Shown: positions 13,562-32,572, counted from the first letter of the stretch. The stretch: DNA of 64,000 bases from Candidatus Eiseniibacteriota bacterium (GCA_963823555.1 CAWGMA010000001.1:1504001-1568000); one strand, 5' to 3'. Numbers and translations: made by a program. The notes: generated by a model from the letters alone, not told the origin.

Positions 13562-13702
13562 GCCACTTATCCCTCCGCGGAAACGGTCCCGCTCCCGCGC
13601 TTGCGAGCCGCTCCCCACCTCGGGCATGGGAGAGCGCGACATGGCGAACGACATGTTTGGCCGGCATCCGGAGCCGACCCCATCCTGCGTTCGAGGCGCC
13701 GG

Positions 13703-14095: not shown

Positions 14096-14175
14096 CAGTC
14101 CTCCCCCTCCGGCTCGTGCCGACGTGGGCCAGCGTCTCCGGGTCCGCATGTGAGCTCCGGATGCGCGTGGCAACC

Positions 14176-15285
14176 TCACTTCGCGCCGGGGCGTCCTCGC
14201 TTGTAGAACGGCTTCGCTACAACATGAGCCGAGAACACCTGGTCCCGAATCGTCACCTCGATCTCATCCCCCAGATTCGCCGAGTTGCTCGCAATGAGGG
14301 CAAGCGCATACGCCCCATCTAGAGTCGGCGCGAACATGCCGCTTGTGACCTGACCGATCGCCTGACCTCTCCACGCCACGCGACTACCCTGGCGCGCGAT
14401 GCGCGCCCCGGCCATCTTAATCCCAACCAGCTTCCTGGGGATGCCTGTTTCCCGCTGGCGCAGCAGAGCATCGCGACCCAGGAACGGTTTGTCGAGCTTG
14501 ACCGCAAAACCGATGCCGGCCTCGAGCGGCCCGATCTCGGGCGTCAACTCATGGCCATAGAGACAGAGCCCCGCCTCGAAGCGCAGCGTATCGCGCGCGC
14601 CCAGGCCAGCGGGTTGGACTCCCAGATCGACTCCCGCCGCCAGGAGCCCGGCCCACAACCTGGCCGCTTGCTCCGCATCGACCATGATCTCGAAACCGTC
14701 TTCCCCGGTGTACCCGAGCCGGGCGATGAGCGCATCGATCCCGAAGACCCGTCCGTGCTGGAAGCGGTAGTAGCCAAGATCATGGACGAGTGCTCCCCCG
14801 CGACCGAGGAGCTCGGGCGCGCGCGGGCCCTGCACGGCGACAAGGGCGCTGCGCGCCGAGATGTCGTCCATCTCGACCCCGGCCGGCCGGTGGCTCTCGA
14901 GCCAGGCGAAGTCCTTCTCGCGGTTCGAAGCGTTGACCACCATGAGGTAGTCACCGGCAGCAACGCGGTAGACGATCAGGTCATCGACCGTGCCGCCGTC
15001 CTCATAGCAAAGCGCCGAGTAGATGGCCTGGCCATCGGCGATGCCGGCGATCCGGTTGGTCACCAGGTGATCGAGGAAGGACTCGGCGCCGCGGCCGTGA
15101 ACCCGGAAGCGCCCCATGTGCGAGACGTCGAAGAGACCGACCGCCTGGCGGACGGCGAGGTGCTCGGGAATGATGCCCGAGTAAGACAGGGGCATGTCCC
15201 ACCCGGAGAAGTCGACCATCTTGGCGCGTAGCTCCCGGTGGGTGGCGTTGAGTGGAGTCTTGTGCGCAGCGAGAGCGGAGTCCAT
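14176..15285 (-). CDS. gcvT: Glycine cleavage system T protein (aminomethyltransferase)
   Basis: MVDFSGWDMP, GLFDVSHMG, GYTGEDGFE, GLGARDTLRFEAGLCLYGHE. Confidence 0.97.
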   Translation of the reverse strand: MDSALAAHKTPLNATHRELRAKMVDFSGWDMPLSYSGIIPEHLAVRQAVGLFDVSHMGRFRVHGRGAESFLDHLVTNRIAGIADGQAIYSALCYEDGGTVDDLIVYRVAAGDYLMVVNASNREKDFAWLESHRPAGVEMDDISARSALVAVQGPRAPELLGRGGALVHDLGYYRFQHGRVFGIDALIARLGYTGEDGFEIMVDAEQAARLWAGLLAAGVDLGVQPAGLGARDTLRFEAGLCLYGHELTPEIGPLEAGIGFAVKLDKPFLGRDALLRQRETGIPRKLVGIKMAGARIARQGSRVAWRGQAIGQVTSGMFAPTLDGAYALALIASNSANLGDEIEVTIRDQVFSAHVVAKPFYKRGRPGAK

Positions 15286-15364
15286 GGGTGTCGGCCGCTT
15301 CCTTGCCCCGCGGCGGGAGTCTGCTGCCGCCCGGTGCTTCCGGGCGGCGGTGAACAAGCGCCCG

Positions 15365-15683: not shown

Positions 15684-15869
15684 TTGGCCGCCGCAGCGCC
15701 TCCAGCCAGCGCCCCTCCCTCCCCGCCCGAACCGCGGCCGCCCCCGCGCGCTTCCCCTCTCTGCCGACATCTTCTCCCCCAACCCGTCCAGTTCCATCGC
15801 GCCCTTGCACAGTTGGTTGGGGTCCCGCCAGAAGAGCGGACCCTGCCCGGCACTGCGCACTCAAGGTGA
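15684..15869 (+). CDS. Possible 61-aa proline-rich leader/small protein
   Basis: Perfect SD AAGGAGGT (15672-15679) before TTG at 15684; its TGA stop lies inside the RBS of the next gene. Confidence 0.35.
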   Translation: MAAAAPPASAPPSPPEPRPPPRASPLCRHLLPQPVQFHRALAQLVGVPPEERTLPGTAHSR

Positions 15870-15877
15870 GGTCCGCC

Positions 15878-18800
15878 ATGAAGCTAGCCGTCCGGCTCGT
15901 CGCCGCTTCGCTCCTTCTCGGTGCCGCCCTTCCCGCGTCCGCCACCACCCCGATCAGCAGCTGGGGCACCACGATCACGGTCTCGAACGAGACCTATGTC
16001 CTCACCGCGGATCTCATCGATGCCGCCCAGGGCAGCGATGACTTCGCCATCGGCATCGCCCCCGGCGTCAGCGATGTGATCATCGATGGCGCGGGATTCC
16101 TGATCGATGGGCGCGACACCGCCGGAGCGGCAGACGACGACATCGGTATCGCCATGGTTGGCAACTCCGGCGCCCCGATTCGCAATGTCACCGTTCGCAA
16201 CGTTCGCTTCACGGATATCGGCAACGCCGTCTTCGGCCAGGACGATCTCTGCCTCGTCACCATCGAGGATTGCGAGTTCTTCACGGTCAACGACTGGAGC
16301 GCCATCGAGTTCATCACGCTCACCGCGGGAGCCGAGCTCAAGTGGATCACCGTGCGTGAGAACTGGATCCACGACTCGGCCGTCTTTCCCATCAAGTTCT
16401 TCAACTACGCCAATGCCGGGGCCGGCGTTGCCGTCATGCAGCATGTCTACGTCGTCGGCAATGTGATCCATGACAACGCTCGCTCGACGACGCACCCCGA
16501 GAACTGGAATGGAGCAATCGGCTTCCGCCACGGGGCGGAGGATGTCCGCGTCTGGGACAATGTCGTCATTCACAACGACGGGCTGGCCGGTCTCTTCCTC
16601 GGCTCGAACGACGTGGCGGGTGATGTGTTCGATGGAGTTTCGATCCGGGGGAATCACTTCTCCGCCGCGACGGGCAACATCCGGGCTCCATCGGGAACGG
16701 TCGTGGCCTCGGGCATCACGCTTCACCAGGTGACGACGACGAGCGGAGACTTCTCGACGTGGGCGGTGAGCGGCAACTACCTCTATCAGAACGCCAACCG
16801 GGGCATCGACCTCATACCCGGCGGCGGGCCCGCTCCTCTGCCCACGAACGACAACTGGTGGGGTGAGGACGGCACGATCGCCGGCACCTACGGCAACGGC
16901 GCCAGCAATGCCACCGATGCGAGTCCCCTCGATCTGGCCGACGGCATTCTGGCCTCCCCTGATGCAGCCGGCATCGACCGCGCCCTCTCCGATGTCGACG
17001 GCTACTTGGCGCAAGTCGTCCTCCTCAATCAGGATGACGGAGTGCCTGGCATTCGCGGGTTCGATGTCGACTACGACTTTGCCGCGTCGCTCGCTCTGCT
17101 CAGAACGATCGAGGGCCCCTTCCTCCGGTTGCAGTACCCGACGACCACGTTCTTCGACGTGCCCCGGATCGGGGGCAGCGGCAACCAGCGCACGGCGTCA
17201 GGAGCCGTCCTCGGTGGCGGCGCTCCCCTCGCCATCGGCAATGGCGCTCTCGCCATTTCGATCTTCCGCGCCACCGCCGAGGATCTCGGCGCCGGGGACG
17301 ACTACACGATCGACGCGGTCCTGCTTCGGGATCCGTTGAATGTGCCGCTCGCGGTCCTCGGGGATGATGATGCCAATCGTCCCGTTGACGATACCGACCC
17401 CACCGCGGGAGTCGCTTATACCGGTGGGGGCAACGGCTGCTTCAACACCCCCATGGCGAGCATCGATGTCACCGCCGATGACAACCTGGCACTCGAGGAT
17501 ATCCTCTATCGCTTCTACAAGGCGAGCCTCGACCCGGGTTGCTTCGTTCCCGTGGCCCTTGACCTGAACGGGACGGGCTATGGACCGAGCCCGACCGTGG
17601 TGACCTTCGCGGACGGCGACGGGGTCTATCTCTTCGAGGTCCGCGCCAGCGACGACGCGGGCAACTGGACCACCGCGAGCATCACGCTCACCTACGACAC
17701 CACTCCTCCGGCTGACTTTGCCGGTGCCACGGGGGCCGTCGCGGTCCCCGGTCCGGGCACTCCCGCCGCCGAGGAGGTGCTCGTGAGCTGGAACGGGAGC
17801 TTCGAGGCGGGCGGTGATCTTCGCCTGCGCTACCTGCCCTATGGTGGCGCCGTCGGCAACTACGCCTACCCGGAATACGATGACGCCGCACCCACGCCCG
17901 GCCCGCACTACCCCGGACCCGGCGAGGGTACGGAGATCGATATCCCCGATGTCGCCACGGGCAGCGTCACGATCCCGTACCTCCTCGCTGAGCGCTCTTA
18001 CTACTACTACGTCGTCTACGTGATCGACTGCGCCGGGAACCCATCTCCCGGTGTGGCTGGAAGCGCACGCGGGAGCGCGCTCAGTTACTACCTCGGTGAT
18101 TGGGATCCGAACACCACTCCCGCCTGTGCCGGATCGCCGCAGTACGCGAGCGGTAACGGCGAGGTGGATTTCTGTGATCTCATCGGGCTCAGCGCCACTT
18201 TCGGCACCGGCGACGGCCAGCCCGGCTACCAGAACTTCGCCGATATCGGACCGACGACGCCGGGTCCGGGAGTCCTCGATCTCCCGGCGACCGACAATGT
18301 CATCGACTTCGAGGACCTGATCCTGTTTGCGATCAACTTCGGGAACGTGGCACCGCTTGGCGGGGACATCGTGCTCGGCGAGGAAGCGCCCGGAGTCATC
18401 GGCTTCGTGCTCGAACCGAGTGCTGGCGATCGCGACGAACACCTGATAGTTCATCTCACGCTCACCGGCAACGCGCGCGAGGTGAAGGGATTCGAGGCGG
18501 TGGTCGGGCACGCGCCAGGCCTCCGTTTCGTCGCCGCCCGACCCGGTCCGCTGCTCGGCGAGGAGGTCTTCTTCCGCGGCCTCGAGCGCGGCAACACGGT
18601 AAGCGTCAACGCCGCGGTCCTGACTGGAACCTTCGTCGGCTCCGGAGTCGTGGCCGAGCTCGAGTACCAGATTCTCGACCCTGGCGACACCTCCGTCGAG
18701 GTGGTCGGGGCCAAGGTTCGCGATACCACCAACCGTGAGCTCGGCGGCATGGTGACCACTGGAATCGAGGCTCCGGAGGTCGCCCCGGCGGCGACGATCT

Positions 18801-19066
18801 TCCACGCCCCGGCGCCCAACCCCGCCTTCGGAAGCGTGGCGCTCCGCCTGACCCTCGCCCAGCCCGCGGTGGCACGCGTTCGCATCATCGATGCGACCGG
18901 TCGCGTGGTGCGGACGCTGGCCGATGGCCCGCTCACGGCCGGGGATCAGGAGCTCATCTGGAACGGCAGGAACGACGCGGGGCTTCCAGCCCCGAATGGC
19001 ATCTATCTCGTGGAGTTCGCCGCCGGTGCCAACCGGTCGGTGCACAAGCTGATGCTCGTGCGCTAG
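15878..19066 (+). CDS. Secreted modular protein A1: beta-helix, cohesin-like, Ig-like, FN3-like (YPEYDD), dockerin-like, cohesin-like, FlgD/T9SS-type CTD
   Basis: Signal peptide MKLAVRL..LPASA; parallel beta-helix repeats ending in NWWG; YYLGDWD..NGEVDFCDL..DIGPTT..DNVIDFEDLILFAINF; C-terminal PNP..IIDATGRVVRTL..WNGRNDAG..GIYLV..KLMLVR. Confidence 0.85.
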   Translation: MKLAVRLVAASLLLGAALPASATTPISSWGTTITVSNETYVLTADLIDAAQGSDDFAIGIAPGVSDVIIDGAGFLIDGRDTAGAADDDIGIAMVGNSGAPIRNVTVRNVRFTDIGNAVFGQDDLCLVTIEDCEFFTVNDWSAIEFITLTAGAELKWITVRENWIHDSAVFPIKFFNYANAGAGVAVMQHVYVVGNVIHDNARSTTHPENWNGAIGFRHGAEDVRVWDNVVIHNDGLAGLFLGSNDVAGDVFDGVSIRGNHFSAATGNIRAPSGTVVASGITLHQVTTTSGDFSTWAVSGNYLYQNANRGIDLIPGGGPAPLPTNDNWWGEDGTIAGTYGNGASNATDASPLDLADGILASPDAAGIDRALSDVDGYLAQVVLLNQDDGVPGIRGFDVDYDFAASLALLRTIEGPFLRLQYPTTTFFDVPRIGGSGNQRTASGAVLGGGAPLAIGNGALAISIFRATAEDLGAGDDYTIDAVLLRDPLNVPLAVLGDDDANRPVDDTDPTAGVAYTGGGNGCFNTPMASIDVTADDNLALEDILYRFYKASLDPGCFVPVALDLNGTGYGPSPTVVTFADGDGVYLFEVRASDDAGNWTTASITLTYDTTPPADFAGATGAVAVPGPGTPAAEEVLVSWNGSFEAGGDLRLRYLPYGGAVGNYAYPEYDDAAPTPGPHYPGPGEGTEIDIPDVATGSVTIPYLLAERSYYYYVVYVIDCAGNPSPGVAGSARGSALSYYLGDWDPNTTPACAGSPQYASGNGEVDFCDLIGLSATFGTGDGQPGYQNFADIGPTTPGPGVLDLPATDNVIDFEDLILFAINFGNVAPLGGDIVLGEEAPGVIGFVLEPSAGDRDEHLIVHLTLTGNAREVKGFEAVVGHAPGLRFVAARPGPLLGEEVFFRGLERGNTVSVNAAVLTGTFVGSGVVAELEYQILDPGDTSVEVVGAKVRDTTNRELGGMVTTGIEAPEVAPAATIFHAPAPNPAFGSVALRLTLAQPAVARVRIIDATGRVVRTLADGPLTAGDQELIWNGRNDAGLPAPNGIYLVEFAAGANRSVHKLMLVR

Positions 19067-19082
19067 CCAAGTCATGAGGACC

Positions 19083-19102
19083 GGGACGGGGCCCTCCGTC
19101 CC
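19083..19102 (+). other. Intergenic stem-loop GGGACGG-N6-CCGTCCC
   Basis: 7-bp perfect inverted repeat between A1 and the A2 RBS; no U-tract. Confidence 0.45.
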
Positions 19103-19118
19103 GACTCGAGGAGGGGTC

Positions 19119-22100
19119 ATGGTCCAATCGCGCTTGACGCAGCGGGTTCTCCTGAGCGCCCTGGTGGGGAGTCTCCTCTTCGCCGCACCCGCGCTCGCCG
19201 CTGTGCCCATCTCCAGCTGGGGGTTCGTGACGCTCTTCAGCGATACCACCTACGTGGTCACGACGGACCTGACGGAACCGGCGGGCACACAAGGGGTGAG
19301 CGGCACCGTCGCCATCCGCATCCCGCCATCGGTGCACGACATCGTCATCGAAGGAGGCGGCTTCACGATCGATGGGCGCGATACCGGCGGTAGCCCTGAT
19401 CTCGACATCGGGGTGGCCATGAGCGGCATCGCCTCCGGATCGGTGCGCGACATCGTCATCAGGGATCTCCGCCTCACCGATGTCTCGATCGGCGTGCAGA
19501 TCCAGGATTACGTCTGCCGGGCCGTTGTCGAGGACTGTGAGTTCGCCGCCTGTGTCAACCAGGCGGGGATCGAGCTGGCGAACGTGATCGGCGGCGCCGA
19601 GATGCGCTGGATCACCGTGCGTGACAACTGGTTTCACGATGGCGCCGGCGTTCCGATCCTGGTTCGCAACACCGCCAACGCCGGGCCCGGGGTGGCCGTG
19701 ATGGAACACATCGCCGTCGTCGCCAATGTGGTCCATGACTACCGGCGCTCGCCGGCCTTTCCGGAGCCCTGGAACGCCGCCATCGTGCTCCGGCATGGCG
19801 GCAGCGAGCTGCGGGTCTGGGACAACCTGATGGTGGGAGGGACAGGCGAGTCCGGCGTCTTCATGACCTCGGATGACAGCTCCGACCAGCCCTACGATGC
19901 GGTCTCGATCCGCGGCAACGTGCTGGCCGGAGCGAGCGGCAACGTTCGCTCGGCAGGAGCCCAGAATGCCAGCGGCATCACGCTCGACCGCGTGACGACC
20001 ACGACCGGCGATTTCTCGACCTGGGTGGTCACCGGCAACTACCTCGTCCAGAACGAGGCCTACGGCATCGAGCTCTTGACCGGGACCAACACCCCGGCGA
20101 GCCTGCCCGCGGATGGCAACTGGTGGGGTGAAGACGGCACGGTCACCGGGGCCTTCGGCAACGGAGCCCTCAATACCACGGACGCCTCGCCGCGCGACAT
20201 CGCCGATGGCATCCTCGTCATCCCCTCGCGTTCCGCGGGTGGCGACCGCGCCGTGGCCGCTGTGGGCGGATTCGCCGGGGTCGCTGTCATCCTCAACCAG
20301 AACGACGGGGCACCGGGGATCCGCGGCTTCGATGTCGATTACGATCACACGGCCAGCTTCGCCTACCGACGCACGATCGAGGGCCCCTTCCTCGATCTGC
20401 AGGCGCCGACCGTGCAGTTCTACGACATCCCGCGGATCGGCGGGTCCGGGAACGAGCGCACGGCATCAGCCGCGATCCTGGGCGGCGGCGCCCCCCTGGC
20501 CGTCGGCAACGGAGTGCTCTTCCTGACCGTGCTTGCAGGCACCAGCGAGGACGAGGCGCCGGCCGCCGACTTCCTGCTCCAGGGCGCGGCGCTTCGTGAT
20601 CCCGGGAACTTCCCGGTTGCCATTGCCGCTCTCACCGATGCCGATCGCCCGATCGACGACACACCACCGGCGGCGACCGTCACCCCTCCAGGCGGCAACC
20701 CCTGCGTCGGGAGCGAGACCGCGCCCGTGGGGGTCGCGGTGAGCGACGACTTCGCTCTCGAAGATGTGGCCTACCGCTTCCATCGCATCGATCTGGCTCC
20801 GGGCTGCTGGACGGCCCTCTCGCTCGACGAACCGGGCACTGCCTACACCGGTCCAGCCAGCGTACCTGTGACGTTCGGTTTCGGCGAGGGGACCTATGTG
20901 TTCGAGCTCCTTGCCACGGATGACGCCGGCAATGCCGCCATCGAGAGGCTCTTCCTCTCCTTCGATGAGACGCCTCCGGCGGACTTCACAGGCACCACGA
21001 CCGCGCTCGCCGTTCCCGGTCCCGGCACGCCGGCGGCCGAGGAGGTTCGTTTCACCTGGAACGGCAGCTTCGAGGCTGGCGCCGACCTGAGGCTCCACTA
21101 CCTCCCCTATGGCGGCACACCCGGGAACTACGCTTACCCCGAGTACGACGACGCGGGCCCGGTGCCGGGACCGCACTTCCCGGGCCCCACGGAGGGGACG
21201 GTGATCGATCTCCCCGATGTCGCCTCCGGAAGCGTGGTCATTCCGTTCACGATCGCCGAACGTTCCTACTACTACTTCACCCTCTACGTGTTCGACTGCG
21301 CCGGAAATCCCTCGCCGGGGGCCAGCTCGACCGTGCGCAAGAACGCCCTCAGCTATTACCTGGGCGACTGGGACTCCCACAGCCCACCGGCCTGCCCCGG
21401 GTCGCCCGAGTACACGAGCGGCAACGGCGAGGTCCACTACTGCGATCTGATCGGAATGAGCCGTGCCTTCGCCACGACGCCGAGCGACCCCAACTACTCC
21501 GCCTATGTGGACATCGGTCCGACGACCCCAGGGCCTTCCCCCCGTGATCTACCCGTCACGGACAATGTGATCGACTTCGAGGACCTCATCATCTTCGCGG
21601 TCAACTTCGAGACCGTGTTCCCCTTCGCCGGCGATGACGAGACCGTGCTGGCCGACGAACGGACGGGGCGAATCGGCTCCGTCCGCCTCACCCTCGACGT
21701 GACATCGCGCGAAGAGGACCGAGTGCTGGCCAGGCTGCGGGTCGACGGCGACGTTGAAGAGCTCCTCGGTCTAGAGGCGGTGATCCTGACACCGGGCTTC
21801 GAGCTGGTTCGGGTCCGTCCGGGACCCATCGTGCCGGACTCGCACTTCCTGATCGCCGTGCCGCACAAGGATGGATGGACCTTCAACCTCGCCCTGCTCG
21901 GACCGGAGGCACGACTGGCAACCGCGGGCGTGGTGGGCGAGATCGAGCTCCGGCCCACGGGGAGCCTGGATGAACCCACATGCCGCCTTCAGAGCCACAA
22001 GCTCCGCGACCGCCGGAATCGCGAGCTGGATGGGTCCGGAGGCGTTGCGGCGGTGGGAACCGGGCCCCCCGCGAGCGACATTCCACGCACCTTCGCCCTG

Positions 22101-22349
22101 GCCGAGCCCGTTCCTAACCCGGCCAATCCGGTCACGAGCATCAATTTCTCTGTGCCGGGCCGCTCCGAGCTGAGGATTCACGTCTATGACGCGGCAGGTC
22201 GGCTCGTGGCGCGTCTTTTCGAGGGCATCGCCGAACCCGGCGAGCACACGGTGACATGGCGCGCCGACGAGCATGCCAGCGGCATGTACCTGATCGAGAT
22301 GACGGCGGGTGAATTCCGCGCGGTGCGGAAGGCGCTCATCATCAAGTAG
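19119..22349 (+). CDS. Secreted modular protein A2, full-length tandem paralogue of A1
   Basis: Colinear with A1 (PISSWG, WITVRDNW, NWWGEDGT, PGIRGFDVDYD, PGPGTPAAEEV, NYAYPEYDD, YYLGDWD, DNVIDFEDL); GAGGAGG RBS before the ATG at 19119; CTD ends RKALIIK. Confidence 0.85.
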   Translation: MVQSRLTQRVLLSALVGSLLFAAPALAAVPISSWGFVTLFSDTTYVVTTDLTEPAGTQGVSGTVAIRIPPSVHDIVIEGGGFTIDGRDTGGSPDLDIGVAMSGIASGSVRDIVIRDLRLTDVSIGVQIQDYVCRAVVEDCEFAACVNQAGIELANVIGGAEMRWITVRDNWFHDGAGVPILVRNTANAGPGVAVMEHIAVVANVVHDYRRSPAFPEPWNAAIVLRHGGSELRVWDNLMVGGTGESGVFMTSDDSSDQPYDAVSIRGNVLAGASGNVRSAGAQNASGITLDRVTTTTGDFSTWVVTGNYLVQNEAYGIELLTGTNTPASLPADGNWWGEDGTVTGAFGNGALNTTDASPRDIADGILVIPSRSAGGDRAVAAVGGFAGVAVILNQNDGAPGIRGFDVDYDHTASFAYRRTIEGPFLDLQAPTVQFYDIPRIGGSGNERTASAAILGGGAPLAVGNGVLFLTVLAGTSEDEAPAADFLLQGAALRDPGNFPVAIAALTDADRPIDDTPPAATVTPPGGNPCVGSETAPVGVAVSDDFALEDVAYRFHRIDLAPGCWTALSLDEPGTAYTGPASVPVTFGFGEGTYVFELLATDDAGNAAIERLFLSFDETPPADFTGTTTALAVPGPGTPAAEEVRFTWNGSFEAGADLRLHYLPYGGTPGNYAYPEYDDAGPVPGPHFPGPTEGTVIDLPDVASGSVVIPFTIAERSYYYFTLYVFDCAGNPSPGASSTVRKNALSYYLGDWDSHSPPACPGSPEYTSGNGEVHYCDLIGMSRAFATTPSDPNYSAYVDIGPTTPGPSPRDLPVTDNVIDFEDLIIFAVNFETVFPFAGDDETVLADERTGRIGSVRLTLDVTSREEDRVLARLRVDGDVEELLGLEAVILTPGFELVRVRPGPIVPDSHFLIAVPHKDGWTFNLALLGPEARLATAGVVGEIELRPTGSLDEPTCRLQSHKLRDRRNRELDGSGGVAAVGTGPPASDIPRTFALAEPVPNPANPVTSINFSVPGRSELRIHVYDAAGRLVARLFEGIAEPGEHTVTWRADEHASGMYLIEMTAGEFRAVRKALIIK

Positions 22350-22359
22350 GAGGTCGGTG

Positions 22360-23130
22360 ATGGCACGATTCCTTGCGCTGATTGCAGTCGCCTCACTAGC
22401 CGGGATGCTGGCGGTGACCGTGGCCCTCGCCGAACCGATCGTCTACCTGCGCCCCTTGTGCCTGGACATCCAGGCTGGGCAGACCCTGACGGTGCACCTC
22501 AGCGTGGGCGACACCGGGGATGAGATCAGCTGCTTCTATGCGGTGATCGCGTACGATCCAGCCAGGATCGTCATCAACGATGTCACCGAGGGCGGTCTCT
22601 ACGTGTCGACATCCGAGCCGACCTATCCGGGCTGGACGGCGACGGCGCCCGATTCCTTCGAGGTCTACAACTGCATCCTGGGTTCGGGAACGTTCGTGCT
22701 CGGACCGGGCGATCTCGCCGACATCGAGGTCGAGGGGCTCGTCACCGGGCCGGCGCCGATGACGATCAGCTTCATCGACATCCGGGACCGGAACCGGGAC
22801 TCCTACCCCACGCTCTTTGTCGTCAATTGCGGCACGACCGGGCTTCCGGCGGAAGCCGAGACGCCGGCGATCGCGCCGCGCCTCAGGGTCGCGCCGAACC
22901 CGGCACCGGGCCGAGCTCGGATCGAGCTTCTCGGCCCGGTGCCGGCGGGGAGCGTCGACATCTACGATGTCGCCGGCCGGCTCTGCCGCAGCCTCGGTGT
23001 CGCTGCCGGCGGCGCCGTTCTCCGCTGGGATGGTCGTGACGACCACGGCCGCAACCTGCCGCCCGGGATGTACCTGATCCGGGGCGGTGAGAAGGGGGAA
23101 CTTGGAACCAAGTTGCTTCTGATTCGCTAG
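22360..23130 (+). CDS. Secreted single-cohesin protein with FlgD/T9SS-type CTD
   Basis: Signal peptide; GQTLTVHLSV..FYAVIAYDPARIVINDVTEGGL..GPGDLADIEVEG..IRD (cohesin pattern); CTD APNP..IYDVAGR..WDGRDDHG..GMYLIR..KLLLIR; AGGAGG RBS. Confidence 0.8.
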   Translation: MARFLALIAVASLAGMLAVTVALAEPIVYLRPLCLDIQAGQTLTVHLSVGDTGDEISCFYAVIAYDPARIVINDVTEGGLYVSTSEPTYPGWTATAPDSFEVYNCILGSGTFVLGPGDLADIEVEGLVTGPAPMTISFIDIRDRNRDSYPTLFVVNCGTTGLPAEAETPAIAPRLRVAPNPAPGRARIELLGPVPAGSVDIYDVAGRLCRSLGVAAGGAVLRWDGRDDHGRNLPPGMYLIRGGEKGELGTKLLLIR

Positions 23131-23214: not shown

Positions 23215-26200
23215 ATGCACAAGCCGCAACTGATCTTGCTGTCTTCTGCCATCGCCCTGGTGCTGGCCGCCGCCGTGGCGGCGGCTCCAGTGGCCACGCG
23301 CTTAAGCGAGAACCCGGATGACATCGTGGGTCCTCCCATGGCCGTCCGCGGTTTCTCGCCGCTGTCGGTGCTCGGGAGCCCGGCCAATCTCGATGATGGG
23401 ATCCAGCTCGGAGGCGACTACGGGCGGCGCATGCAGGCGGACGTCACCGAGGACAATGCCGGCAATGGAGGGGGCGATTCGGATCCTGACGATGCCGGAT
23501 GGGACTGGGTGCGCACCTCGCCTCCCGATCCCTACGAACACTCGGCGACGGCAAGCCCCACGAACCTCTACGGCGTCTGCTCCCTCGGGCTCTACTACGC
23601 GCATCTGCGCAATCCCGGCGACGCCGGCATCCTGCAGGCCATGACCGACGCCGCCGTGTGGAGCAGGAACGCTGGGAGCGGGAGCATCCGCACCTCTGCC
23701 GACATGATCTTCCTCATGCTGTATGCGGATCTGGTGACGGATAACACCTTCGCAGATGCGGCCAAGGCCAAGATGGATGCCCGAATCGCGGCCGCGGGCA
23801 CCAACGGGACCGATCTCGCTGTCTACATTCGAGATCTCCGCGGCGTCACGCAGAACTACCCCAACGGCATCATTGCCTGGGACATCGGGGCCTATGTCGT
23901 GGCCTGTCAGATGCTCTTCGACGCGGGCTACGGATCACCTTATGACACCTGGGCCGACCAGATGGCCGAGGTGCTGTGGCAGGATTCGTTCAACGATGAC
24001 CCCGGTCTCTTCGATGTCGTCGATGACGCCGGCTGGGATCCCACCTACACCAATCGCAACTTCTGGTGGTACAACCTCGGCATCTCGGGCCTGATCGACG
24101 CCTTCGAGACGTCAGGTGTCCACACCGCCGAGATCCCGGGCCTGGTCCAGCGCATCCTCGACAGCCAGGCTTCCACGGGGGCGATCTGCTTCAGCTATGG
24201 CGTCCATGCGGATGACGAGGACTGGCAATCGACGGCCTACGCGGCCATGTCCCTCGCTCGTCACGACAAGCCGACCTACCAGCTCGATATCAGCCACATG
24301 GCCTACTACATGGCCGCCACCCAGGATCCGACCCACGGCTCCTGGCTCTACTCCGGCGGTGACCACTATCCGGAGGTTTGCCTCGAGAACGTCTCGGGCA
24401 TGTACTTCGGCGAGCCACCCACGGAGGTTCTCGTCGACGACGACTTCGTCGATCAGGATGCGGTGGATACCTACAACGCCGCCAACAGCACCAGCTACGT
24501 CCTCGGCTACGACGCCTTCGACAACATCCAGGATGGCGTCAATGCCGTCTCCGGCAGCACGGTCAACGTGCTTCCGGGGACGTATGAGCAGCAGGTGGTG
24601 ATCACGACCAATAACCTCGTTCTTGCCGGGTCCGGCGTCGGCAGCACGATCATCAAGTCGCCGGTAAGTCTCGCCGCCTCATTCAACACCGGGGTCAGCA
24701 ATTACCCGGTGGTATTCATCAACGGAGCGACGGGAGTCACGATCCAGGACCTCACCGTCGACGGTTTCGGCCGCGGGAACTCGAACTACCGCTTCATCGG
24801 TATCGCCTACTGGAATGCCGGTGGGACGATCCAGGACTGTCGCATCACTGGTATACGTGAGGCGCCGCTTAGCGGGAATCAGCACGGGGTCGGCATCTAT
24901 AGCTACAACAACACCGGTGGTCCATACGCCTTGAACGTCCTTGCCACGACAGTTGATGACTACCAGAAGAACGCAATGGCGCTTTCCGGGGATGGCATGG
25001 TCGTAAGCGTGGCCAACTGCACTACGGTTGGTTCCGGAGATCTAGGCTTGGGACTGCCGGCTCAGAATGGCATCCAGGTCAGCTATGGAGCCAGCGGTTC
25101 GGTTTCATCCACCTCCATCTCCAATATGCGGTATACGCCGGCGACATGGGTGGCCAGCGGGGTTCTGGTCTATCTGCCTGGTGACGCAGTCACCCTCAGC
25201 AGCCTGAGCGGAGCCAACGCGATCACCAACGTGCAGGCTCCGATCAGCTGGTACGACGGATCCGGATCAATGACTGATGTGGAGACGGTCGGCGGATCGG
25301 ACTTTGGACCTGTGTACATCGAGAATGCTTCGACGGTCTCCAAGACTGCCGAGTCGAGTCCGCGGCGCTCCGAACCTCTTTCAGAGGAACGCCAGCAGTC
25401 GGGACCGCCCGTGGCAACGAGCTTCAGCGTTAGCGTTTCCGGAAGCTGCTTCACGGGCACCGGGGTTACCGGGACCGCGGGCGTTTATGCCTACTCAGCG
25501 GGCATGCCACTCAGTGTCTTGGTAAACAACACTACGCTCAGCAACTGGGACTATGGCCTTGTCGCTGATGGCGCAGCCGTCAACCTGACCGCCCAGGACA
25601 ACTCGATTTCCGGGAATGTCAGCGCCGGCTTCGACAACACGCTGAGCCTCGCCGCCCAGGATGCAGAGTACAACTGGTGGGGTCATGTTGGCGGACCGGC
25701 CGGGGGCGGAGACCTTGTCCTCGGTACCGGGGTTGATTACACGCCGTGGCGCACGGACGGCACGAGCACCACGCTCTGCGCCTTTACCCCGGCCAACACC
25801 AACGCGGTTACGCCCGGACCGGCGCCGAGCTGCATCTCGACGGTGAATCCGTGCGTCACCATCCCGGTCGACATCGCGCGGAGTGACAACGCGAATCTCC
25901 GTGGTTTCAGCATCCAGGTCACGCTCTCCTCGGAGCTGGCGCTGTGCGGATCCGGGATCAGCGAGGGCACTTACCTGAGCGGCATCGGTGGCACGAACTT
26001 CCAGGTCACGGGATCCAATCCCTACACCGTGGACTGTGCCATCCTCGGCGGCACGTGCGGCGCAACGGCGCCAACCGGCAATCTTTTCAACCTGAATGTG
26101 ACGAGCGCGAGCCCGACAGCCACTGGAACCATCAGCATCACGGGCGTCACGCTGCGCGACTGCGTCAACCAGCCCATTCCGGGTTCGCCCGGCACGCCAC

Positions 26201-27533
26201 TCTCGATCACGATCGACAACACGCCGCCGGTGGCGGTCACGAACCTCACGGCCACGCAGGTCAAGGCCGCGAATGACTCGGATGGCACGACGAAGATCAC
26301 CCTCAACTTCACCGTCCCGGGAGACGCGGCGGTGACCGAGGTCTACCGGGCGCCCTACGGGAACTATCCCGAGTACGACGACCCGACGCCGACTCCGGGC
26401 GCCGTGCCGAGCGCTCCCTCCTATCCGCCGGCTGCACCCTGGGCTCCGACCGGCGTCACGGGAACCGGGCAGACCGATGAGGTGGCCTGGCCGGCGCGTG
26501 ACTTCTGGTACTACGCCGTCTTCACCAAGGACGCCTGCGGCAACGTGTCCGCGGTCTCGAACATGACCGACGGAACGCTCAACTACCACCTCGGCGATGT
26601 CACGGCACGCCTCCGGCGCAGGGGACAATGTGGTCGGTTACCGTGGACATCTCGCTCCTCGGAGCTCACTACGGCATCACCCTCATTCCCAACGATCCAT
26701 TCAACTACCTCGACGTCGGTCCCACCACCGACTACTCGGTGGATGCCCGGCCGACGACGGACAACCTCATCAACTTCGAGGACCTGATCGTCTTCGCCAT
26801 CAACTACGAACTGGTCGGCAAGAACGCAGCCCCATCCGGTATCAACGACATCCCGGACGGCAGACCGACGCTCGTGCTCCGCACCGAGGCGACGGCCGAT
26901 GGCATCCTCGCCCACCTCGTCCTCGCGGATAACCCGGGCAGCGTGAAGGGTATCCACGCCGTGATCGAGTCCGACCCAGGGCTCGCCCTGGTCACGGTCG
27001 AAGAGGGAGCTCTTCTCGCGGGCCAGGAGGACATCTTCTTCCGCCATCTGGCCGAAGGCGGTACCGGCATCCATGCCGCGGCGCTCGGCAACGGGGTCGC
27101 GATCCACGGCTCCGGCGAGGTCGCCACGCTCCGCTATCGCGGTCGCGGCGACGTGCGCCTGGCGGTGACCGATCTCCGCGATCTCGACAATCGCTTCCTC
27201 GGTGATCCGCCGACGACGACGGCGGTGGCCGAGGCGGCACAGGCCGTGATCCCCGAGCGCTTCGCGCTCCTCGCGGCCCAGCCCAATCCCTTCAACCCGT
27301 CGACCACGCTCCGCTTCAACCTGCCGGTGGCCTCGCACGCCACGCTCGCGATCTACGACGTGAGCGGGCAGCTGGTGCGCATGCTCGTCGACGGCGATCT
27401 ACAACCGGGCGAGTTCTCCGCCTACTGGGACGGCCGGAACGGCCGGGGCCAGACGGTGAGCTCGGGTGTGTATCTGGTGCGGATGCGGGCCGGCAGTTTC
27501 GAGGCCACGCAGAAGCTCCAGCTCCTCAAGTAA
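23215..27533 (+). CDS. Secreted modular protein B1: alpha/alpha-toroid-like, beta-helix, cohesin-like, FN3-like (YPEYDD), dockerin-like, cohesin-like, CTD; two indels at about 26605-26640
   Basis: ORF 23215..26787 matches the paralogues up to NYHLGDVT; SGAGDNVV follows in a second frame and TVDISLLGAHYG..DNLINFEDL..KLQLLK in a third (ORF 26628..27533). Confidence 0.8.
26865..27533 (+). repeat. Cohesin + CTD coding segment highly similar at DNA level to 30960..31634 (more loosely to 37440..38107)
   Basis: Shared strings such as ggcatcctcgcccacctcgt, cccaatcccttcaa, ggccagacggtgagctc, ttcgaggccacgcagaagctcca; differences mostly at third codon positions. Confidence 0.8.
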
Positions 27534-27620: not shown

Positions 27621-30600
27621 ATGCAATCACACTCACGCTTCTGGATTCCGGTGCTGATCATGATGGTCGCCGTTGCGGCCATCACGCTGCCCCCGACCAG
27701 CGCCGGCGCACGTGTTTCCCCGACCGAAGATGCGCCGGGGGGCGCCGACCTCGATCGCACCCCGGTCGAGACTCCGGGCGACGCCAGCGATGTGAAGAAC
27801 CTCGCTACCGGTCTGTTCTACGACAGCGTGGCCCTGGCTCTGGCCGACCCCCTCACACTCGACGGTCATACGCTGGAAGTGCAGAGCAGCTATGCGGAGG
27901 GCCTGGTCGACGTCAACAAGGCGGTCACCATCCAGGGGCTCTTGGGATCCGAGGTCATCACGCCGACCACGAACACCGGGAGCTCGGGTGACGCTCGTGG
28001 CTGGTTCCTTGTCACCGTTCCCGGAGTGACCATCAAGAACCTCAACTTCGATGGCACCGGCTTTCTCATTCAGCAGGCGGTCCGCTGCCTCGAGGATGTC
28101 GTCATCGAAGACTGCTCGTTCTCGAACATCAGCTACTCCCTCTACACCGGCATCGGAGTGGTCGGATTCAAGATTACGACGGTCAATCGATGCAGCTTTG
28201 CCAACATCGAGCGCATCGGCATCATCCTCTTCGGGCTCGACGCCAATGGGTTCGTCAACGAGTGTACCTACACCGGGAAGGGCATCGTCGACGGCCTCGA
28301 CTACGGAATCGAGCTGGGCGGAGGAGCCATCGCCGCTCTGTACAACAACACGATCACCAATTGCCTGGGAGTCGCATCGAGCGACGGCTCGACCTCGGCT
28401 GCCACCCTCATCACGACCTACTTCGGCCTGGGGACCATGGGAGATGTCTCCCATAACTTCCTCAACAACAACACAGCTGCGATTGCGGCCGGATATGATG
28501 CGGCCGACGAGTCGATGGTGATGGCTTACGAGAACGACTTCTCAGGGAACCTATCCTACGGTGTCGAGAACACTTCGTCGATCAGGATCACGGACGCCTC
28601 CGCCAACTGGTGGGGCACCAATGACCGCACCACGGTCGCGTCCCTGACCTCGGGCACCGTCGACTACACGCCCTGGACCGATGTGGGCACCGACACATCG
28701 GCGGATCCTGGCTTCCAGCCCGACCTCTCGACGCTCCACGTCGATGCCGCAAGCCCACAACTGGGCTCTAGCATCCTGCAAGAGGCCATCCAGCTCGTAA
28801 GCGGTAGCACCGTCATCGCAGGGCCTGGCACCTACGTCGGGGGTATCAACCTCAACAAGTCGGTAACGCTCCTTGGCGCTCAGAGCGGCGTTCCGGCATG
28901 TGGCCGCGTGGTCGGCCCGCCGAATCCGGCGGTCGAATCGATCATCACCGGCGGCGGGACGCCCCTACTCAAGCTCCTCGGCGGCTGCGCCGGCAGCGTG
29001 ATCGACGGCTTCGCCTTCATCGGCGGCGCCAAGGGCATCGAATCCAGCTCCGGCCCGATCAACAACGTGCAGATCCTGAACAACCACATTGCCGGCTTCA
29101 CGGGCAGCGGCGTCTTCTTGAACGATTCGGGAACCGACATTACCGTGGATCAAAACAACATCGATGGATCGAGCCAGACGGGCGCCGGTGGTATCTTCCA
29201 CCTCGATCAGGACAACTTCGATGGGTTGCACTTCACCAGCAACTGCGTCCTCAATTCCGTCAACGGTACCGGCCTCTTCGTCGATGGCAATCACAATGTC
29301 GGCGCCAGCGGGCTTCGCACGCCGCTCATCGACGGCAACCAGTTCACCGCCAATAACACAGGAACGAATCTCGGACGGTTTGCGTTCGAGTTCGGAACCA
29401 TCAGCAACAACACCTTCTCCGGGAGTGGGTTTGACGGATTGCAGGGCGGCATCCAGAACACGGCGATCACGGGCAACACCTTCTCCGGGAACGGCCGTTT
29501 CGGACTCGCCCTGACCGGTTTCGGAGGCAGCAGTGATCCCACGCGCGGAGCACAGAACTGCACCATCACGGGGAACAGCTTCACCAGCAATGTGAGCGCG
29601 GGGCTGCTGTTCAGCGGGAGTCAGTACCCTGGCACCATCTCGACGAACATCGCCAACAACAACAACTTCACCGGAAACATCGGCCCAGGCGCGTCGTATT
29701 CGGGCACCGAGACCCTGGATCTCACCTGCAACTGGTGGAGTGACCTGGGCGGCCCGGACTACTCGCCGACCAATCCCAATCCGCCTGGAGACGCAATCGT
29801 CGCGGCCAGCGCGCTTTTCGCCCCGTGGCTGAACGGCGCTGCTCCGGGCGGCAGCTGTGACCAGTACGGCAACAATACGATCGCGGCGAACACGACGGGG
29901 CTCTGCATCTCGACGGCGACGACCTGCGTGACCGTGCCGGTCGAGTTCAACCGGCTCGACGCGAGCCCGGCCCGCGCCGTGAGCGTCACGATCCAGCTCA
30001 GCTCGAACATCGAGCTGTGCGGCGCCATCACCCAGGGCACCTGGATCGGGCCCTACAACTCGGTCTTCCAGGTCATCGACAACACCGGTGGATCCTACAC
30101 CGTGGATCAATCGATCCTCGGCACACCCTGCGGGATCACGACCGGGGGCACCCTCTTCACGGTGCCGGTCCGGAAGACCACGGCCGCCGGCGACGGCACG
30201 GGAACCATCACCGTGACCGCAGCCGATGTCCGTGATTGCGGTAATCCCGCTGTGACGCTGCCGGGCATTGCTGGCGCCCCGGCCTCGATTCCGATCGACA
30301 TCACGGCCCCGGCGGCGGTGGCGCTGACCGCCGCTCAGGATCTCACCTCGAACGGCACCGACGGCACGACCTCGATCGATGTCACCGTCCCCAACACGGT
30401 GGTCGCGGGCGACGAGGTCCGCGTCTACCGCAAGGGCTTCGGCAACTACCCGGAGTACGATGACCCGCCCAGTCCGGGTGCGGTGCCCATGATACCCACC
30501 ACGGAGGCAGCGGCGCTGGGCACGGGCTGGACCCTCGCCTTCTCGACCACCGGTCCCTACCCCATCACGGTCCCGAACGAGCCCACGACCCGGGACTTCT

Positions 30601-31634
30601 GGTACTACGTGGCCTTTGCCGAGGATCCCTGTGGCAACGTGGGCGGGGCCACCGCGATCACGGGCGGCAACCTCAACTACCACCTCGGCGATGTCACCGA
30701 CGGCACGACGCCCGGCAACGGCGACAACTTCGTCGATGGCGCCGACATCTCCGCGCTGGGGACAGCCTACGGCCAGGTGGACGGCGGGCCTTTCTACCAG
30801 AACTACATCGATGTCGGACCCACCACCGATGGCTCCACGCGCGGTCGCCCGATCACCGACAACCAGATCGAGTTCGAGGACCTGATCCTCTTCGCGATCA
30901 ACTACGGGAACGTGAGCCTGAACGCCCCGGCGGGTGGTTTGGCGGACGTGCCTGACGGCAGGCCCGTACTCCTCCTCCGCACCGAGGCCACCGCCGACGG
31001 CATCCTCGCCCACCTCGTGCTCGAGGACAACGCCGGCCAGGTCAAGGGCATCCACGCCGTCCTCGAGTTCGATCCAGGGCTCAGCCTGGTCGCGGTCGAG
31101 GAGGGGGCGCTCCTCCAGGCTCAGGGCCAGCCGGTCTTCTTCCGTCACCTGGAGGAAGCCGGTGCCGGCATCCACACCGCCGTCCTCGGTAACGGCATCG
31201 GCCTCCACGGCACAGGCGATGTCGCCACGGTGCGCTTCCGGGGCCGCGGCGAGGTGCGGCTCGGCCTCGCCGACCTCCGGGATCTCGATAACCATGCCAT
31301 CGGCGATCCGCCCCAGACCACCGGCATCGAGCCGGCGGCGGTGACACCCACGCCCGAGCGCTTCGAGCTGCTCGCGGCGCAACCCAATCCCTTCAATCCG
31401 TCGACCACGCTGCGCTTCCGGCTGCCGCAGGCGGCTCACACCACGATCTCGATCTATGATGTGAGCGGGCAGCTCGTGCGCACCCTCGTTGACGGCGATC
31501 TGCAACCGGGCGAGCACACCGCCTTCTTCGATGGGCGGAACGCTCGGGGCCAGACGGTGAGCTCCGGCGTCTATCTGGTGCGCATGCGGGCCGGCAGCTT
31601 CGAGGCCACGCAGAAGCTCCATCTCCTCAAGTAG
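27621..31634 (+). CDS. Secreted modular protein B2: two beta-helix domains, cohesin-like, FN3-like (YPEYDD), dockerin-like, cohesin-like, CTD
   Basis: Signal peptide; two Asn-ladder beta-helices ending NWWG and NWWS; NYHLGDVTDGTTPGNGDNFVDGADI..DVGPTTD..DNQIEFEDLILFAINYG; CTD ends KLHLLK; AAGGAGG RBS. Confidence 0.85.
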   Translation: MQSHSRFWIPVLIMMVAVAAITLPPTSAGARVSPTEDAPGGADLDRTPVETPGDASDVKNLATGLFYDSVALALADPLTLDGHTLEVQSSYAEGLVDVNKAVTIQGLLGSEVITPTTNTGSSGDARGWFLVTVPGVTIKNLNFDGTGFLIQQAVRCLEDVVIEDCSFSNISYSLYTGIGVVGFKITTVNRCSFANIERIGIILFGLDANGFVNECTYTGKGIVDGLDYGIELGGGAIAALYNNTITNCLGVASSDGSTSAATLITTYFGLGTMGDVSHNFLNNNTAAIAAGYDAADESMVMAYENDFSGNLSYGVENTSSIRITDASANWWGTNDRTTVASLTSGTVDYTPWTDVGTDTSADPGFQPDLSTLHVDAASPQLGSSILQEAIQLVSGSTVIAGPGTYVGGINLNKSVTLLGAQSGVPACGRVVGPPNPAVESIITGGGTPLLKLLGGCAGSVIDGFAFIGGAKGIESSSGPINNVQILNNHIAGFTGSGVFLNDSGTDITVDQNNIDGSSQTGAGGIFHLDQDNFDGLHFTSNCVLNSVNGTGLFVDGNHNVGASGLRTPLIDGNQFTANNTGTNLGRFAFEFGTISNNTFSGSGFDGLQGGIQNTAITGNTFSGNGRFGLALTGFGGSSDPTRGAQNCTITGNSFTSNVSAGLLFSGSQYPGTISTNIANNNNFTGNIGPGASYSGTETLDLTCNWWSDLGGPDYSPTNPNPPGDAIVAASALFAPWLNGAAPGGSCDQYGNNTIAANTTGLCISTATTCVTVPVEFNRLDASPARAVSVTIQLSSNIELCGAITQGTWIGPYNSVFQVIDNTGGSYTVDQSILGTPCGITTGGTLFTVPVRKTTAAGDGTGTITVTAADVRDCGNPAVTLPGIAGAPASIPIDITAPAAVALTAAQDLTSNGTDGTTSIDVTVPNTVVAGDEVRVYRKGFGNYPEYDDPPSPGAVPMIPTTEAAALGTGWTLAFSTTGPYPITVPNEPTTRDFWYYVAFAEDPCGNVGGATAITGGNLNYHLGDVTDGTTPGNGDNFVDGADISALGTAYGQVDGGPFYQNYIDVGPTTDGSTRGRPITDNQIEFEDLILFAINYGNVSLNAPAGGLADVPDGRPVLLLRTEATADGILAHLVLEDNAGQVKGIHAVLEFDPGLSLVAVEEGALLQAQGQPVFFRHLEEAGAGIHTAVLGNGIGLHGTGDVATVRFRGRGEVRLGLADLRDLDNHAIGDPPQTTGIEPAAVTPTPERFELLAAQPNPFNPSTTLRFRLPQAAHTTISIYDVSGQLVRTLVDGDLQPGEHTAFFDGRNARGQTVSSGVYLVRMRAGSFEATQKLHLLK

Positions 31635-31666
31635 AACTGAGGTAGAATTGGATGAGGGTTGAGCGA

Positions 31667-31695
31667 GGCCGGGGCGCCACCAGGGCGCCCCGGCC
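31667..31695 (+). terminator. Intergenic stem-loop after B2, without a U-tract
   Basis: GGCCGGGGCGCC-accag-GGCGCCCCGGCC, 12-bp perfect stem. Confidence 0.55.
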
Positions 31696-31735
31696 CGCCT
31701 CCCAGAACCGATCACCGCTTCACGAAGGGGTCGCC

Positions 31736-32572
31736 ATGCGGACTTCCTCGACTGCCGCCATCCTCCTTGCCACGTTCGTCCTCGTGCTCTCCGCCTCGGC
31801 AACGGCGCAACCGGCGGACTTCAACGCCTTCCTGCTGCCCGAGCTGAGCACGATCGACGTCGGGGACACTGTGTTCGTCCGCTTCGAAGTGGATGCGACG
31901 GCGATGGAGTTCAACGGCTATGAAGTGACGATCCAGTACGACCCCACGATCGTCGACTTCCTGCCGCCAGTGATCGAGGGTCCGCTCATGACCGGCGCTT
32001 GCGGGAACACCTTCAAGTCGCTCACGCAGACCGATTCGACGCTCACCTACGCGCACGTGATCCTCTGCGCCGGGGTTGCTCTCAACGGCCCGGGCCTGCT
32101 CTCCACCTACCGATTCCAGGGTCTCGCCAACGGGGTGAGCCCGGTCACGATCATCAGCGATCCCGATCGCACGTTCGCCAATGCGGGGATATGGATCAGC
32201 CCCGGTCACCCCACCTTCCCGCGGCAGGTGATCTTCCATAACGCGGAAATCCGGGTCGGCCCGCAGTCCGGCATCGACTCGGGCGCCGTGCCACCGCCTA
32301 CCTTCCATCTCGGGCAGAACGCGCCGAATCCGTTTCGATCGCTCACCACCATCCCCTTCGAGCTCGCAGCCGATGGTGAGGTCACCTTCGAGATCTTCGA
32401 TGTTCTGGGCCGCCGCGTGTGGTCGGATGCGTGGACCCTCACGGCGGGGACCCACACCCTGCGCTGGGATGGAGTCAGTTCCAGCGCCTCAACGCTTCCC
32501 AACGGCGTCTACCTCTACCGGTTGACGTCCGCGACCGGGAGCGAGAGCCGCCGTCTCGTCCTCACCCGCTAA
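31736..32572 (+). CDS. Second secreted single-cohesin protein with FlgD/T9SS-type CTD
   Basis: Signal peptide; VGDTVFVRFEV..FNGYEVTIQYDPTIVDF..EGPLM..NGPGLLSTYRFQG; CTD QNAPNPF..IFDVLGR..WDG..GVYLYRL..RLVLTR. Confidence 0.8.
   Translation: MRTSSTAAILLATFVLVLSASATAQPADFNAFLLPELSTIDVGDTVFVRFEVDATAMEFNGYEVTIQYDPTIVDFLPPVIEGPLMTGACGNTFKSLTQTDSTLTYAHVILCAGVALNGPGLLSTYRFQGLANGVSPVTIISDPDRTFANAGIWISPGHPTFPRQVIFHNAEIRVGPQSGIDSGAVPPPTFHLGQNAPNPFRSLTTIPFELAADGEVTFEIFDVLGRRVWSDAWTLTAGTHTLRWDGVSSSASTLPNGVYLYRLTSATGSESRRLVLTR

Follow-up and report, generated by a model that had tools for sequence, protein, structure and literature searches.

Pairs of cohesin and dockerin are familiar as connectors between separate proteins. 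In clostridial type II anchoring, exemplified by CohI9-X-DocII of Clostridium thermocellum CipA (3kcp, 4fl4) and the XDoc of Acetivibrio cellulolyticus ScaA (4u3s), the cohesin sits on a separate anchor protein with SLH or sortase tags. The XMod-Doc:ScaE complex of Ruminococcus flavefaciens CttA, in which dockerin inserts contact the X module, resists 600-750 pN (PMC4266597). Amy4 of the Ruminococcus bromii amylosome has a cohesin as well as a dockerin in one protein; self-recognition was demonstrated for it, and multimers without a classic scaffoldin were proposed (PMC4611034). Further afield, a scaffoldin-like protein with a C-terminal domain (CTD) was inferred from the genome of Candidatus Stygibacter (PMC8542988), proteins combining a single dockerin with as many as five cohesins were inferred from ANME genomes (PMC9012536), and a Chlorobium cohesin-dockerin pair resides on two proteins (10.64898/2026.03.19.712371). 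Here we describe a gene cluster in a 64,000-nucleotide stretch of a Candidatus Eiseniibacteriota genome (the window, G000:C1:1504001-1568000; genome 4.6 Mb, four contigs, 92.5 percent complete), whose large products, putative type IX secretion system (T9SS) cargo, end in a tail with a dockerin between two cohesins.

The order cohesin-X-dockerin is shared with the clostridial systems. Here, in contrast, the matching cohesin is fused behind the dockerin and followed by a T9SS-type CTD, both calcium loops of the dockerin carry insertions, and no cellulase was found by Pfam among the window payloads (beta-helix, LamG and Ig domains). An X-dockerin contact, here indicated by covariation, and a pulling geometry that would run from the X N-terminus to a C-terminally anchored cohesin resemble CttA-ScaE. 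That complex, however, consists of two proteins with type III modules and a measured force, whereas the present tail is one chain with a covalent linker, known from genes and models. Amy4 has one cohesin in a single enzyme and its self-binding was read as intermolecular, whereas the present proteins combine two cohesins with a fixed adjacent pair and interchangeable payloads, in 803 clusters (50 percent identity, as throughout). The family joins Candidatus Stygibacter, with which it shares the CTD, and ANME, with which it shares one plug and several sockets, as a case of such modules outside cellulosomes; those reports, as far as their available text goes, present separate enzyme-dockerin and scaffoldin proteins or domain lists and describe no obligate dockerin-cohesin cis cassette. 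Nor do the proteins resemble a cellulosome, where plant-wall enzymes bearing only a dockerin attach to a separate multi-cohesin scaffoldin, since the dockerins here bring their own cohesin. Self-binding cohesin-dockerin proteins are known from Amy4; no description of a fixed cis cassette on T9SS cargo was found in the literature searched (subscription journals mostly outside, supplements excluded). The grappling-hook protein GhpA, a Foldseek match, was dropped from the comparison, the preprint text containing neither 'cohesin' nor 'dockerin'.

Gene cluster and tail architecture

The cluster (15866-38107, plus strand) encodes five large proteins (A1, A2, B1, B2 and B3) and two small ones, all seven of which end in a FlgD-Ig/T9SS type A CTD. 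In 5/5 large genes the order is payload, inner cohesin, a further Ig-like domain (A1 and A2), X module, dockerin, outer cohesin and CTD (HMM, hidden Markov model):

15866..19066, +, A1 (P0001): N-terminus resembling a signal peptide, beta-helix payload and the tail; probable start codon ATG 15878
16961..17386, +, A1 inner cohesin: A-type and divergent, with Ser in place of the face Asp seen in the family
17387..17698, +, A1 extra Ig-like spacer, A1/A2 type only: insertion relative to B-type tails; weak Big_13 match (E 0.019)
17699..18088, +, A1 X module (FN3-like), directly 5' of the dockerin: family HMM match
about 18089..18364, +, A1 type II-like dockerin: both calcium loops with insertions; profile matches to type II dockerins
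18401..18760, +, A1 outer cohesin, shorter and less conserved: family profile matches 2vn5, 1g1k and 2xdh; predicted cis partner of the dockerin
18791..19063, +, A1 T9SS type A-like CTD (FlgD-Ig): FlgD_ig and TIGR04183 matches
19074..22349, +, A2 (P0002), A1 paralogue: inner cohesin 20229-20654, X 20967-21356, dockerin 21357-21632, outer cohesin 21678-22046, CTD
22309..23130, +, P0007, small signal peptide-cohesin-CTD protein: no dockerin; Pfam Cohesin E 0.0025
23215..27533, +, B1 (P0003 + P0008): inner cohesin 25813-26217, X 26218-26586, dockerin about 26587-26830 (frameshifted), outer cohesin 26859-27215, CTD
27621..31634, +, B2 (P0004), beta-helix payload: inner cohesin 29886-30299, X 30300-30680, dockerin 30681-30929, outer cohesin 30957-31316, CTD
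31652..32572, +, P0006, second small cohesin-like-CTD protein: no dockerin; outer-cohesin HMM 28 bits
32675..38107, +, B3 (P0005), two LamG and several Ig domains: inner cohesin 36380-36799, X 36800-37153, dockerin 37154-37402, outer cohesin 37430-37792, CTD

The original prediction had placed a dockerin between two cohesins in every large subunit, quoting eight motifs that all lie within the A1 open reading frame (ORF; 15866-19066, +), inside the interval 17030-18740 assigned to the element. Those of the inner cohesin are GIRGFDVDYD (17048-17077), IEGPFL (17108), GNGALA (17237) and LRDPLN (17324), and those of the outer cohesin VKGFEAVV (18482), GPLL (18545), GSGVVAELEY (18638) and VRDTTN (18716-18733). 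The cohesin-dockerin-cohesin-CTD order indeed recurs in A2, B1, B2 and B3, whereas the motifs themselves are specific to A1: the first two are exact in A2, and B1-B3 contain none, their sequences being homologous but different. What had been overlooked is an FN3-like X module of about 125 amino acids (aa) that always stands between inner cohesin and dockerin, so that these two do not adjoin; with the additional Ig-like domain before X in A1 and A2, the gap reaches about 700 nucleotides in A1. The word 'every' fits the window, while in the whole genome 2/8 proteins with this dockerin gave no inner-cohesin match.

Module assignments were based on profile and fold comparisons, since Pfam Cohesin PF00963 and Dockerin_1 PF00404 had no match in the five large proteins and NCBIfam likewise yielded neither module there; PF00963 is present in many homologues of the tail. 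When the B2 tail was modelled with AlphaFold2 (79 sequences, pLDDT 91.4, pTM 0.78), the inner cohesin (model residues 1-147, nine strands) matched 5nrm with Z 16.8 and a root-mean-square deviation (rmsd) of 2.3 over 137 aligned residues. The outer cohesin has eight long strands and a short last one in this model; in a second B2 model, of X, dockerin and outer cohesin, it matched 2xdh (Z 13.9, rmsd 2.2, 112 aligned), the top 19 rows all being cohesins. The best fold matches of both cohesins were type I-like and archaeal ones. As the folded models are of B2, the A1 inner cohesin is identified by profile homology: with hhalign, a profile of six A-type sequences reached a probability of 94.9 to B-type inner and 89.6 to outer cohesins, compared with 0.1 to X, dockerin and CTD controls. 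Five columns are invariant in an alignment of all 12 cohesin-like modules of the window. The module names originally proposed, including that of the inner cohesin, are therefore borne out by profiles and folds. The B-type inner cohesins (e.g. window 29886-30299) contain five cysteines that are 85-95 percent conserved, with covariation of C14-C45 and C87-C122, and are likely stabilised by disulfides.

With a signal peptide (assigned by eye), the CTD and the machinery genes, the proteins have the features of T9SS type A cargo. TIGR04183 scored over the cut-off in A1, A2, the B1 tail, B2 and B3, as did SprA, PorU and PorV in the genome, where the CTD profile matches 265 ORFs; the B2 CTD model resembles the PorU CTD (6za2, Z 11.1). 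In the Pfam scan of A1, FlgD_ig matched with E 8e-12 and Beta_helix stayed below the cut-off (E 1e-4). No solved relative of its payload was found by sequence search; its database copy has 1062 aa. The B1 reading frame is split by a frameshift within the dockerin (about 26600-26630), which suggests an assembly error because other large genes of the same assembly are split likewise. A similar cluster order was found in a same-genus genome.

The dockerin and its outer cohesin

The linkage, modelling and covariation data described below point to one default state: the dockerin is probably held in a closed cis clasp by the outer cohesin of the same chain, which was the second option of the original prediction. 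A large family appears to keep within one chain a pair otherwise known from between-protein links, with per-gene residue compensation.

A search with the tail found 464 proteins, and all 120 among the matches listed carry the cassette; a profile of the dockerin alone retrieved 1334 clusters at E 0.001, including the 803 at E below 1e-10. Named homologues are mostly from Candidatus Eisenbacteria, with a few from Krumholzibacteria. The dockerin family occurs in 67/121 sampled genomes of the phylum (this one included) with 1-8 copies each, eight of them here, behind interchangeable payloads such as beta-helices, propellers, LamG domains, S8 peptidases and Ig arrays. In the best 150 clusters of the dockerin-only search (155 dockerins, 18 of which lacked downstream room owing to contig ends or frameshifts), an outer cohesin followed within 60 aa in 136/137 cases, and at 68 aa in the remaining one. 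A search with X-dockerin only added 99 new proteins, of which six were short and 93/93 with room had an outer cohesin within 70 aa. Together, these cohesin-blind searches placed an outer cohesin within the distance cut-off after 229/230 dockerins. P0138 consists of four tandem Ig-X-dockerin-cohesin units with one CTD and no inner cohesin, and the dockerin-cohesin pair is repeated twice in P0156 and P0265; because it is duplicated with the dockerin in tandem arrays, the outer cohesin travels with the dockerin and not with the CTD.

The dockerin itself shows the duplicated calcium loop and helix, with the calcium-loop aspartates D4, D22, D44, D60 and D67 conserved to 100 percent, position 3 replaced by insertions in both loops and position 9 variable. 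Its profile matched the type II dockerins 2y3n, 4u3s, 4wi0 and 5k39 at E 0.002-0.009 (six type II chains in all at E 0.002-0.36, with three alkaline phosphatase chains at E 0.5-0.6). Of the type II pattern (PMC5590126) it retains Ala 17, the aromatic residue 20 and Gly 21. Two helices are present in the B2 X-dockerin-outer model. Fold searches were led by cohesins, with no stand-alone dockerin among the matches listed, and only the 3kcp and 4fl4 alignments span the dockerin; an atlas search matching it to PF00404 clusters at 0.90 is a lead only, and an NCBIfam 'flexitail' match over the region lay far below the cut-off. X modules, which are all-beta in the B2 models, directly precede 130/133 dockerins with room upstream (best 150 clusters). 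X-dockerin couplings rank 17, 22 and 27 in the covariation list, and the second-loop insertion covaries with X. This is the arrangement of a type II X-dockerin dyad, with an Ig/FN3-like X directly N-terminal and in contact, and we predict a Ca2+-dependent dockerin fold propped by X.

Recognition positions 10 and 11 are Phe and Glu in 96 and 95 percent of the second dockerin repeats and variable in the first, couplings to cohesins involve helix 3 only, and the symmetric recognition residues of a dual binding mode were not found in the two repeats. Because positions 10 and 11 are fixed in repeat 2 only, the dockerin likely has a single binding face there.

The AlphaFold2 model of X, dockerin and outer cohesin of B2 (100 sequences, 339 residues) reached a pLDDT of 93.9 and a pTM of 0.90, with a low-confidence linker. 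In this model the outer cohesin is confidently placed on the X-dockerin, because two unplaced bodies would cap the pTM near 0.6 (205/339 residues, our own arithmetic). Across the family, dockerin Asn74 and outer cohesin Gly31 are 39-106 aa apart (quartiles 48-52, n=343). Mean-field covariation was analysed over two sets from 370 proteins with 3 duplicates removed, one of 226 units with all four modules and the other of 343 dockerin-outer units. One pair stood out: column 69 of the dockerin (repeat 2, position 14) coupled with outer column 31, the strand-3 glycine of the cohesin, at z 16.0 (226 units) and 21.9 (343 units), compared with at most 6.9 for shuffled pairings. The corresponding residue of A1 is Ile819 (18320). 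Cohesin strands 3, 5, 6 and 8 form what we take to be the dockerin-binding face.

The pair shows a repeated size swap. Among the 343 pairs, a large residue (Met, Ile, Leu or Phe) met Gly in 277 and Val met Ala or Ser in 47; Val with Gly occurred in 7, non-Val with Ala in 9 and other combinations in 3. The Val-Ala state is found in 31 separate clades, and an independent-pairs test on a FastTree phylogeny with the trait columns left out gave 10.5 vs 0 of 14 (p about 0.001). In three groups, paralogues that seem to share one contig differ in their matched pair, so the match is made per gene. The swap between Met/Ile-Gly and Val-Ala may also offer an orthogonal pair for protein engineering.

Several observations weigh against a cis clasp or narrow its support. 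Covariation and the single-chain model alike cannot separate it from a domain-swapped homo-oligomer, and AlphaFold2 may reproduce textbook cohesin-dockerin complexes by likeness. The dockerin-outer signal is one column pair, picked after ranking, and the enrichment on the outer face was gone (p 0.15) once already-seen columns were dropped. The outer cohesins of the window have His or Asn at the face Asp column, and the modelling was done on B2, not on A1.

The domain-swapped form would be included in an open-monomer reading, which takes up the main idea of the original prediction: a unit with one plug and two sockets whose dockerin would freely bind inner or outer cohesins of others, giving ungated chains and trees. 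The anatomy stood up, including the same predicted binding residues in both sockets, and the genes are clustered in eight copies here and occur 1-8 times per genome in 67/121 genomes of the phylum. The Amy4 cohesin, moreover, binds its own dockerin and multimerisation was proposed for it (PMC4611034), and the covariation is compatible with swapped homo-oligomers. Nevertheless, the sockets are not equivalent: of the two dockerin repeats a single one keeps its recognition positions, and the dockerin has one of the sockets tethered behind it, which speaks against free polymerisation on two equal sockets. Per-gene matching among paralogues is at odds with free mixing, linker length shows a floor and a narrow spread as if spanning a closed pair, the closed form is predicted at pTM 0.90, and a tethered partner would have a large concentration advantage. 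We consider such an open monomer improbable. A unit with one plug (AB2 in polymer theory) can form chains or trees, not a cross-linked mesh on its own.

As to how a clasp might open, processing of the CTD had been suggested. Characterised T9SS cargo of Porphyromonas gingivalis has its CTD cut off and the new C-terminus anchored (PMC11611037); if this holds here, dockerin and outer cohesin would stay joined, and nothing points to an opening by CTD removal. Alternatively, the outer cohesin would be a built-in chaperone that shields the dockerin in transit and is later removed, either together with the CTD or by a cut in the dockerin-cohesin linker, leaving one dockerin and one inner cohesin per subunit to form linear filaments. 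Its shorter length and lowest conservation (35 percent mean identity vs 46-57 in the other modules), the low-confidence, exposed linker and many PorU/gingipain-like matches in the genome would suit such a disposable cap. It is made very improbable by the internal repeats of P0138, P0156 and P0265, which keep outer cohesins far from any CTD, by the linker consensus, in which no conserved protease motif was found, and by the description of T9SS processing as removal of the CTD itself (PMC11611037). Beside these proteases, at least six genes in a row (G000:C1:490000-520000), each of about 1600 aa, match the C25/PorU profile below the cut-off and are possibly a gingipain-like protease array.

The inner cohesin and possible assembly

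The inner cohesin is optional and occurs in 0-3 copies. It adjoins X in 176/195 units and lies up to hundreds of residues upstream elsewhere. In the best 150 clusters, some upstream cohesin was detected for 88/103 dockerins, A-type ones being partly missed by the HMM. Among 148 complete-looking proteins, a set biased towards having one inner cohesin, 10 had none, 113 one, 9 two and 16 three. Payload-free cores made up 13/148, one is encoded in this genome, and together with the members carrying 2-3 inner cohesins they render the proposed absence of a dedicated scaffoldin too strong a statement. P0010 and its relatives (about 1700-2060 aa) combine a DUF5122 propeller, two or three inner cohesins and He_PIG Ig spacers in a scaffoldin-like layout.

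Both cohesins keep the same predicted dockerin-binding residues, which in percent are R86 G68 S83 D95 A68 L94 R96 in the inner and G92 S62 D95 A91 L72 R99 in the outer cohesin. The pTM of the tail model (0.78) and its alignment with 3kcp (model residues 2-351, Z 16.2, rmsd 8.6, 249 aligned) suggest an extended cohesin-X-dockerin rod, in which the inner cohesin likely cannot reach its own dockerin. Inner-dockerin couplings between helix 3 and the face numbered 3 of the top 15 (0.11 expected, p 0.0004) and were absent after shuffling, and dockerin 64 with inner 117 gave 11.8 vs 1.9 of 23 pairs in the tree-controlled test (p 0.013, uncorrected). The coupling is only suggestive, and binding of a dockerin by the inner cohesin in trans is plausible from the sequence data. 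Against it stand several results: the inner face set was chosen after the first covariation ranking and its excess was gone without the seen columns (p 0.41); single pairs reached z 6.4-6.6, below the shuffled maximum of 6.9; dockerin 69 with inner 31 gave p 0.25 and 0.07, and dockerin 70 p 1 (tree-controlled, uncorrected); the face Asp is Ser in the A1 and A2 inner cohesins; and no trigger for a dockerin hand-over was found.

Combining these observations, we give roughly even chances to a model in which a fixed X-dockerin-cohesin-CTD cassette has its dockerin clasped in cis, while the inner cohesin, where present, likely acts as a free socket that would join subunits only once a neighbour's dockerin has been handed over to it. 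The protein would fold with Ca2+ into a closed X-dockerin:outer-cohesin foot. By analogy with P. gingivalis, Sec and T9SS export, CTD removal and anchoring at the C-terminus of the outer cohesin would follow, and load would then pass through the clasp from the X N-terminus to the cohesin C-terminus with the linker as covalent back-up. The weakest step would be an exchange of dockerins onto inner cohesins on the crowded surface, giving lateral links and short chains or trees, for which hand-over to the inner cohesin would be needed; payload-free cores and multi-cohesin members could act as adaptors.

In a more far-reaching version, which we put forward tentatively as a possibility, the proteins would form a latch-gated, self-assembling T9SS surface coat: each is exported self-capped, hands its dockerin to a neighbour's inner cohesin and so frees its own outer socket. 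Payload-free cores would then be the backbone, three-cohesin members the branches and members without an inner cohesin the ends. If true, this would be a cohesin-dockerin analogue of strand-exchange assembly across much of an uncultured phylum. Dockerin exchange in general would show how subunits that complement themselves are kept from polymerising ahead of export, and would offer an initial model of the surface layer in an uncultured lineage.

The clasp may, on the other hand, never open. X-dockerin-outer cohesin would then be a locked foot or stalk element of proteins that stay monomeric, each anchored by its own C-terminus, with the inner cohesin acting as a rigid spacer or holding a different ligand. 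All the cis evidence (linkage, model and covariation) also fits a permanent clasp. P0138 has four copies of the unit in the manner of stalk repeats, without any inner cohesin, no dockerin of the family lacking a following cohesin was found that could fill the inner sockets, and the inner-dockerin covariation fails most controls. It is harder to reconcile with an inner cohesin whose conserved exposed residues match those of the outer one, and with payload-free cores, which would have little evident purpose if the inner cohesin bound nothing; on balance we think a permanent clasp unlikely. Closed for good, the cassette would provide T9SS surface proteins with a new structural unit that depends on calcium and may bear load and re-close.

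Related and neighbouring genes

Small cohesin-CTD proteins (22309-23130, 31652-32572 and G000:C2:215188-214055) have divergent faces. As anchors for this dockerin they were weakened as candidates, their face residues differing from those of the large proteins. Two of them, P0007 being one, carry cysteines in two columns of the face that might pair as a disulfide over the binding surface.

A second cluster (G000:C2:217485-203394, minus strand) starts with a payload-free core of the order cohesin-Ig-X-dockerin-cohesin-CTD, followed by a small cohesin-CTD protein and a very large, apparently frameshifted X-dockerin-cohesin-CTD protein without an inner-cohesin match. At G000:C3:178662-175112, the gene for a subtilisin-like protein with a canonical Pfam dockerin and a CTD is followed by that for a predicted lipoprotein with one canonical cohesin; this is a separate, conventional two-protein cohesin-dockerin pair. 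In a PKD-repeat protein (G000:C1:1022476-1026174), a canonical dockerin is followed by a segment with weak resemblance to cohesins (probability 40.6) and by a CTD; what precedes the dockerin looks cohesin-like by eye and had no match to cohesin profiles. A cohesin behind each of the genome's ten dockerins was considered and the claim then narrowed: of the two canonical Pfam dockerins, one has a weakly matching downstream segment (probability 40.6) and the other a segment without a match (0.16).

Promoter and terminator scans gave chance-level hits only. Glycine cleavage genes (T, H, P1 and P2, assigned by eye) lie at 10650-15357 on the minus strand, divergent from the cluster, and a UvrA-like gene lies downstream of it at 39232-42123.

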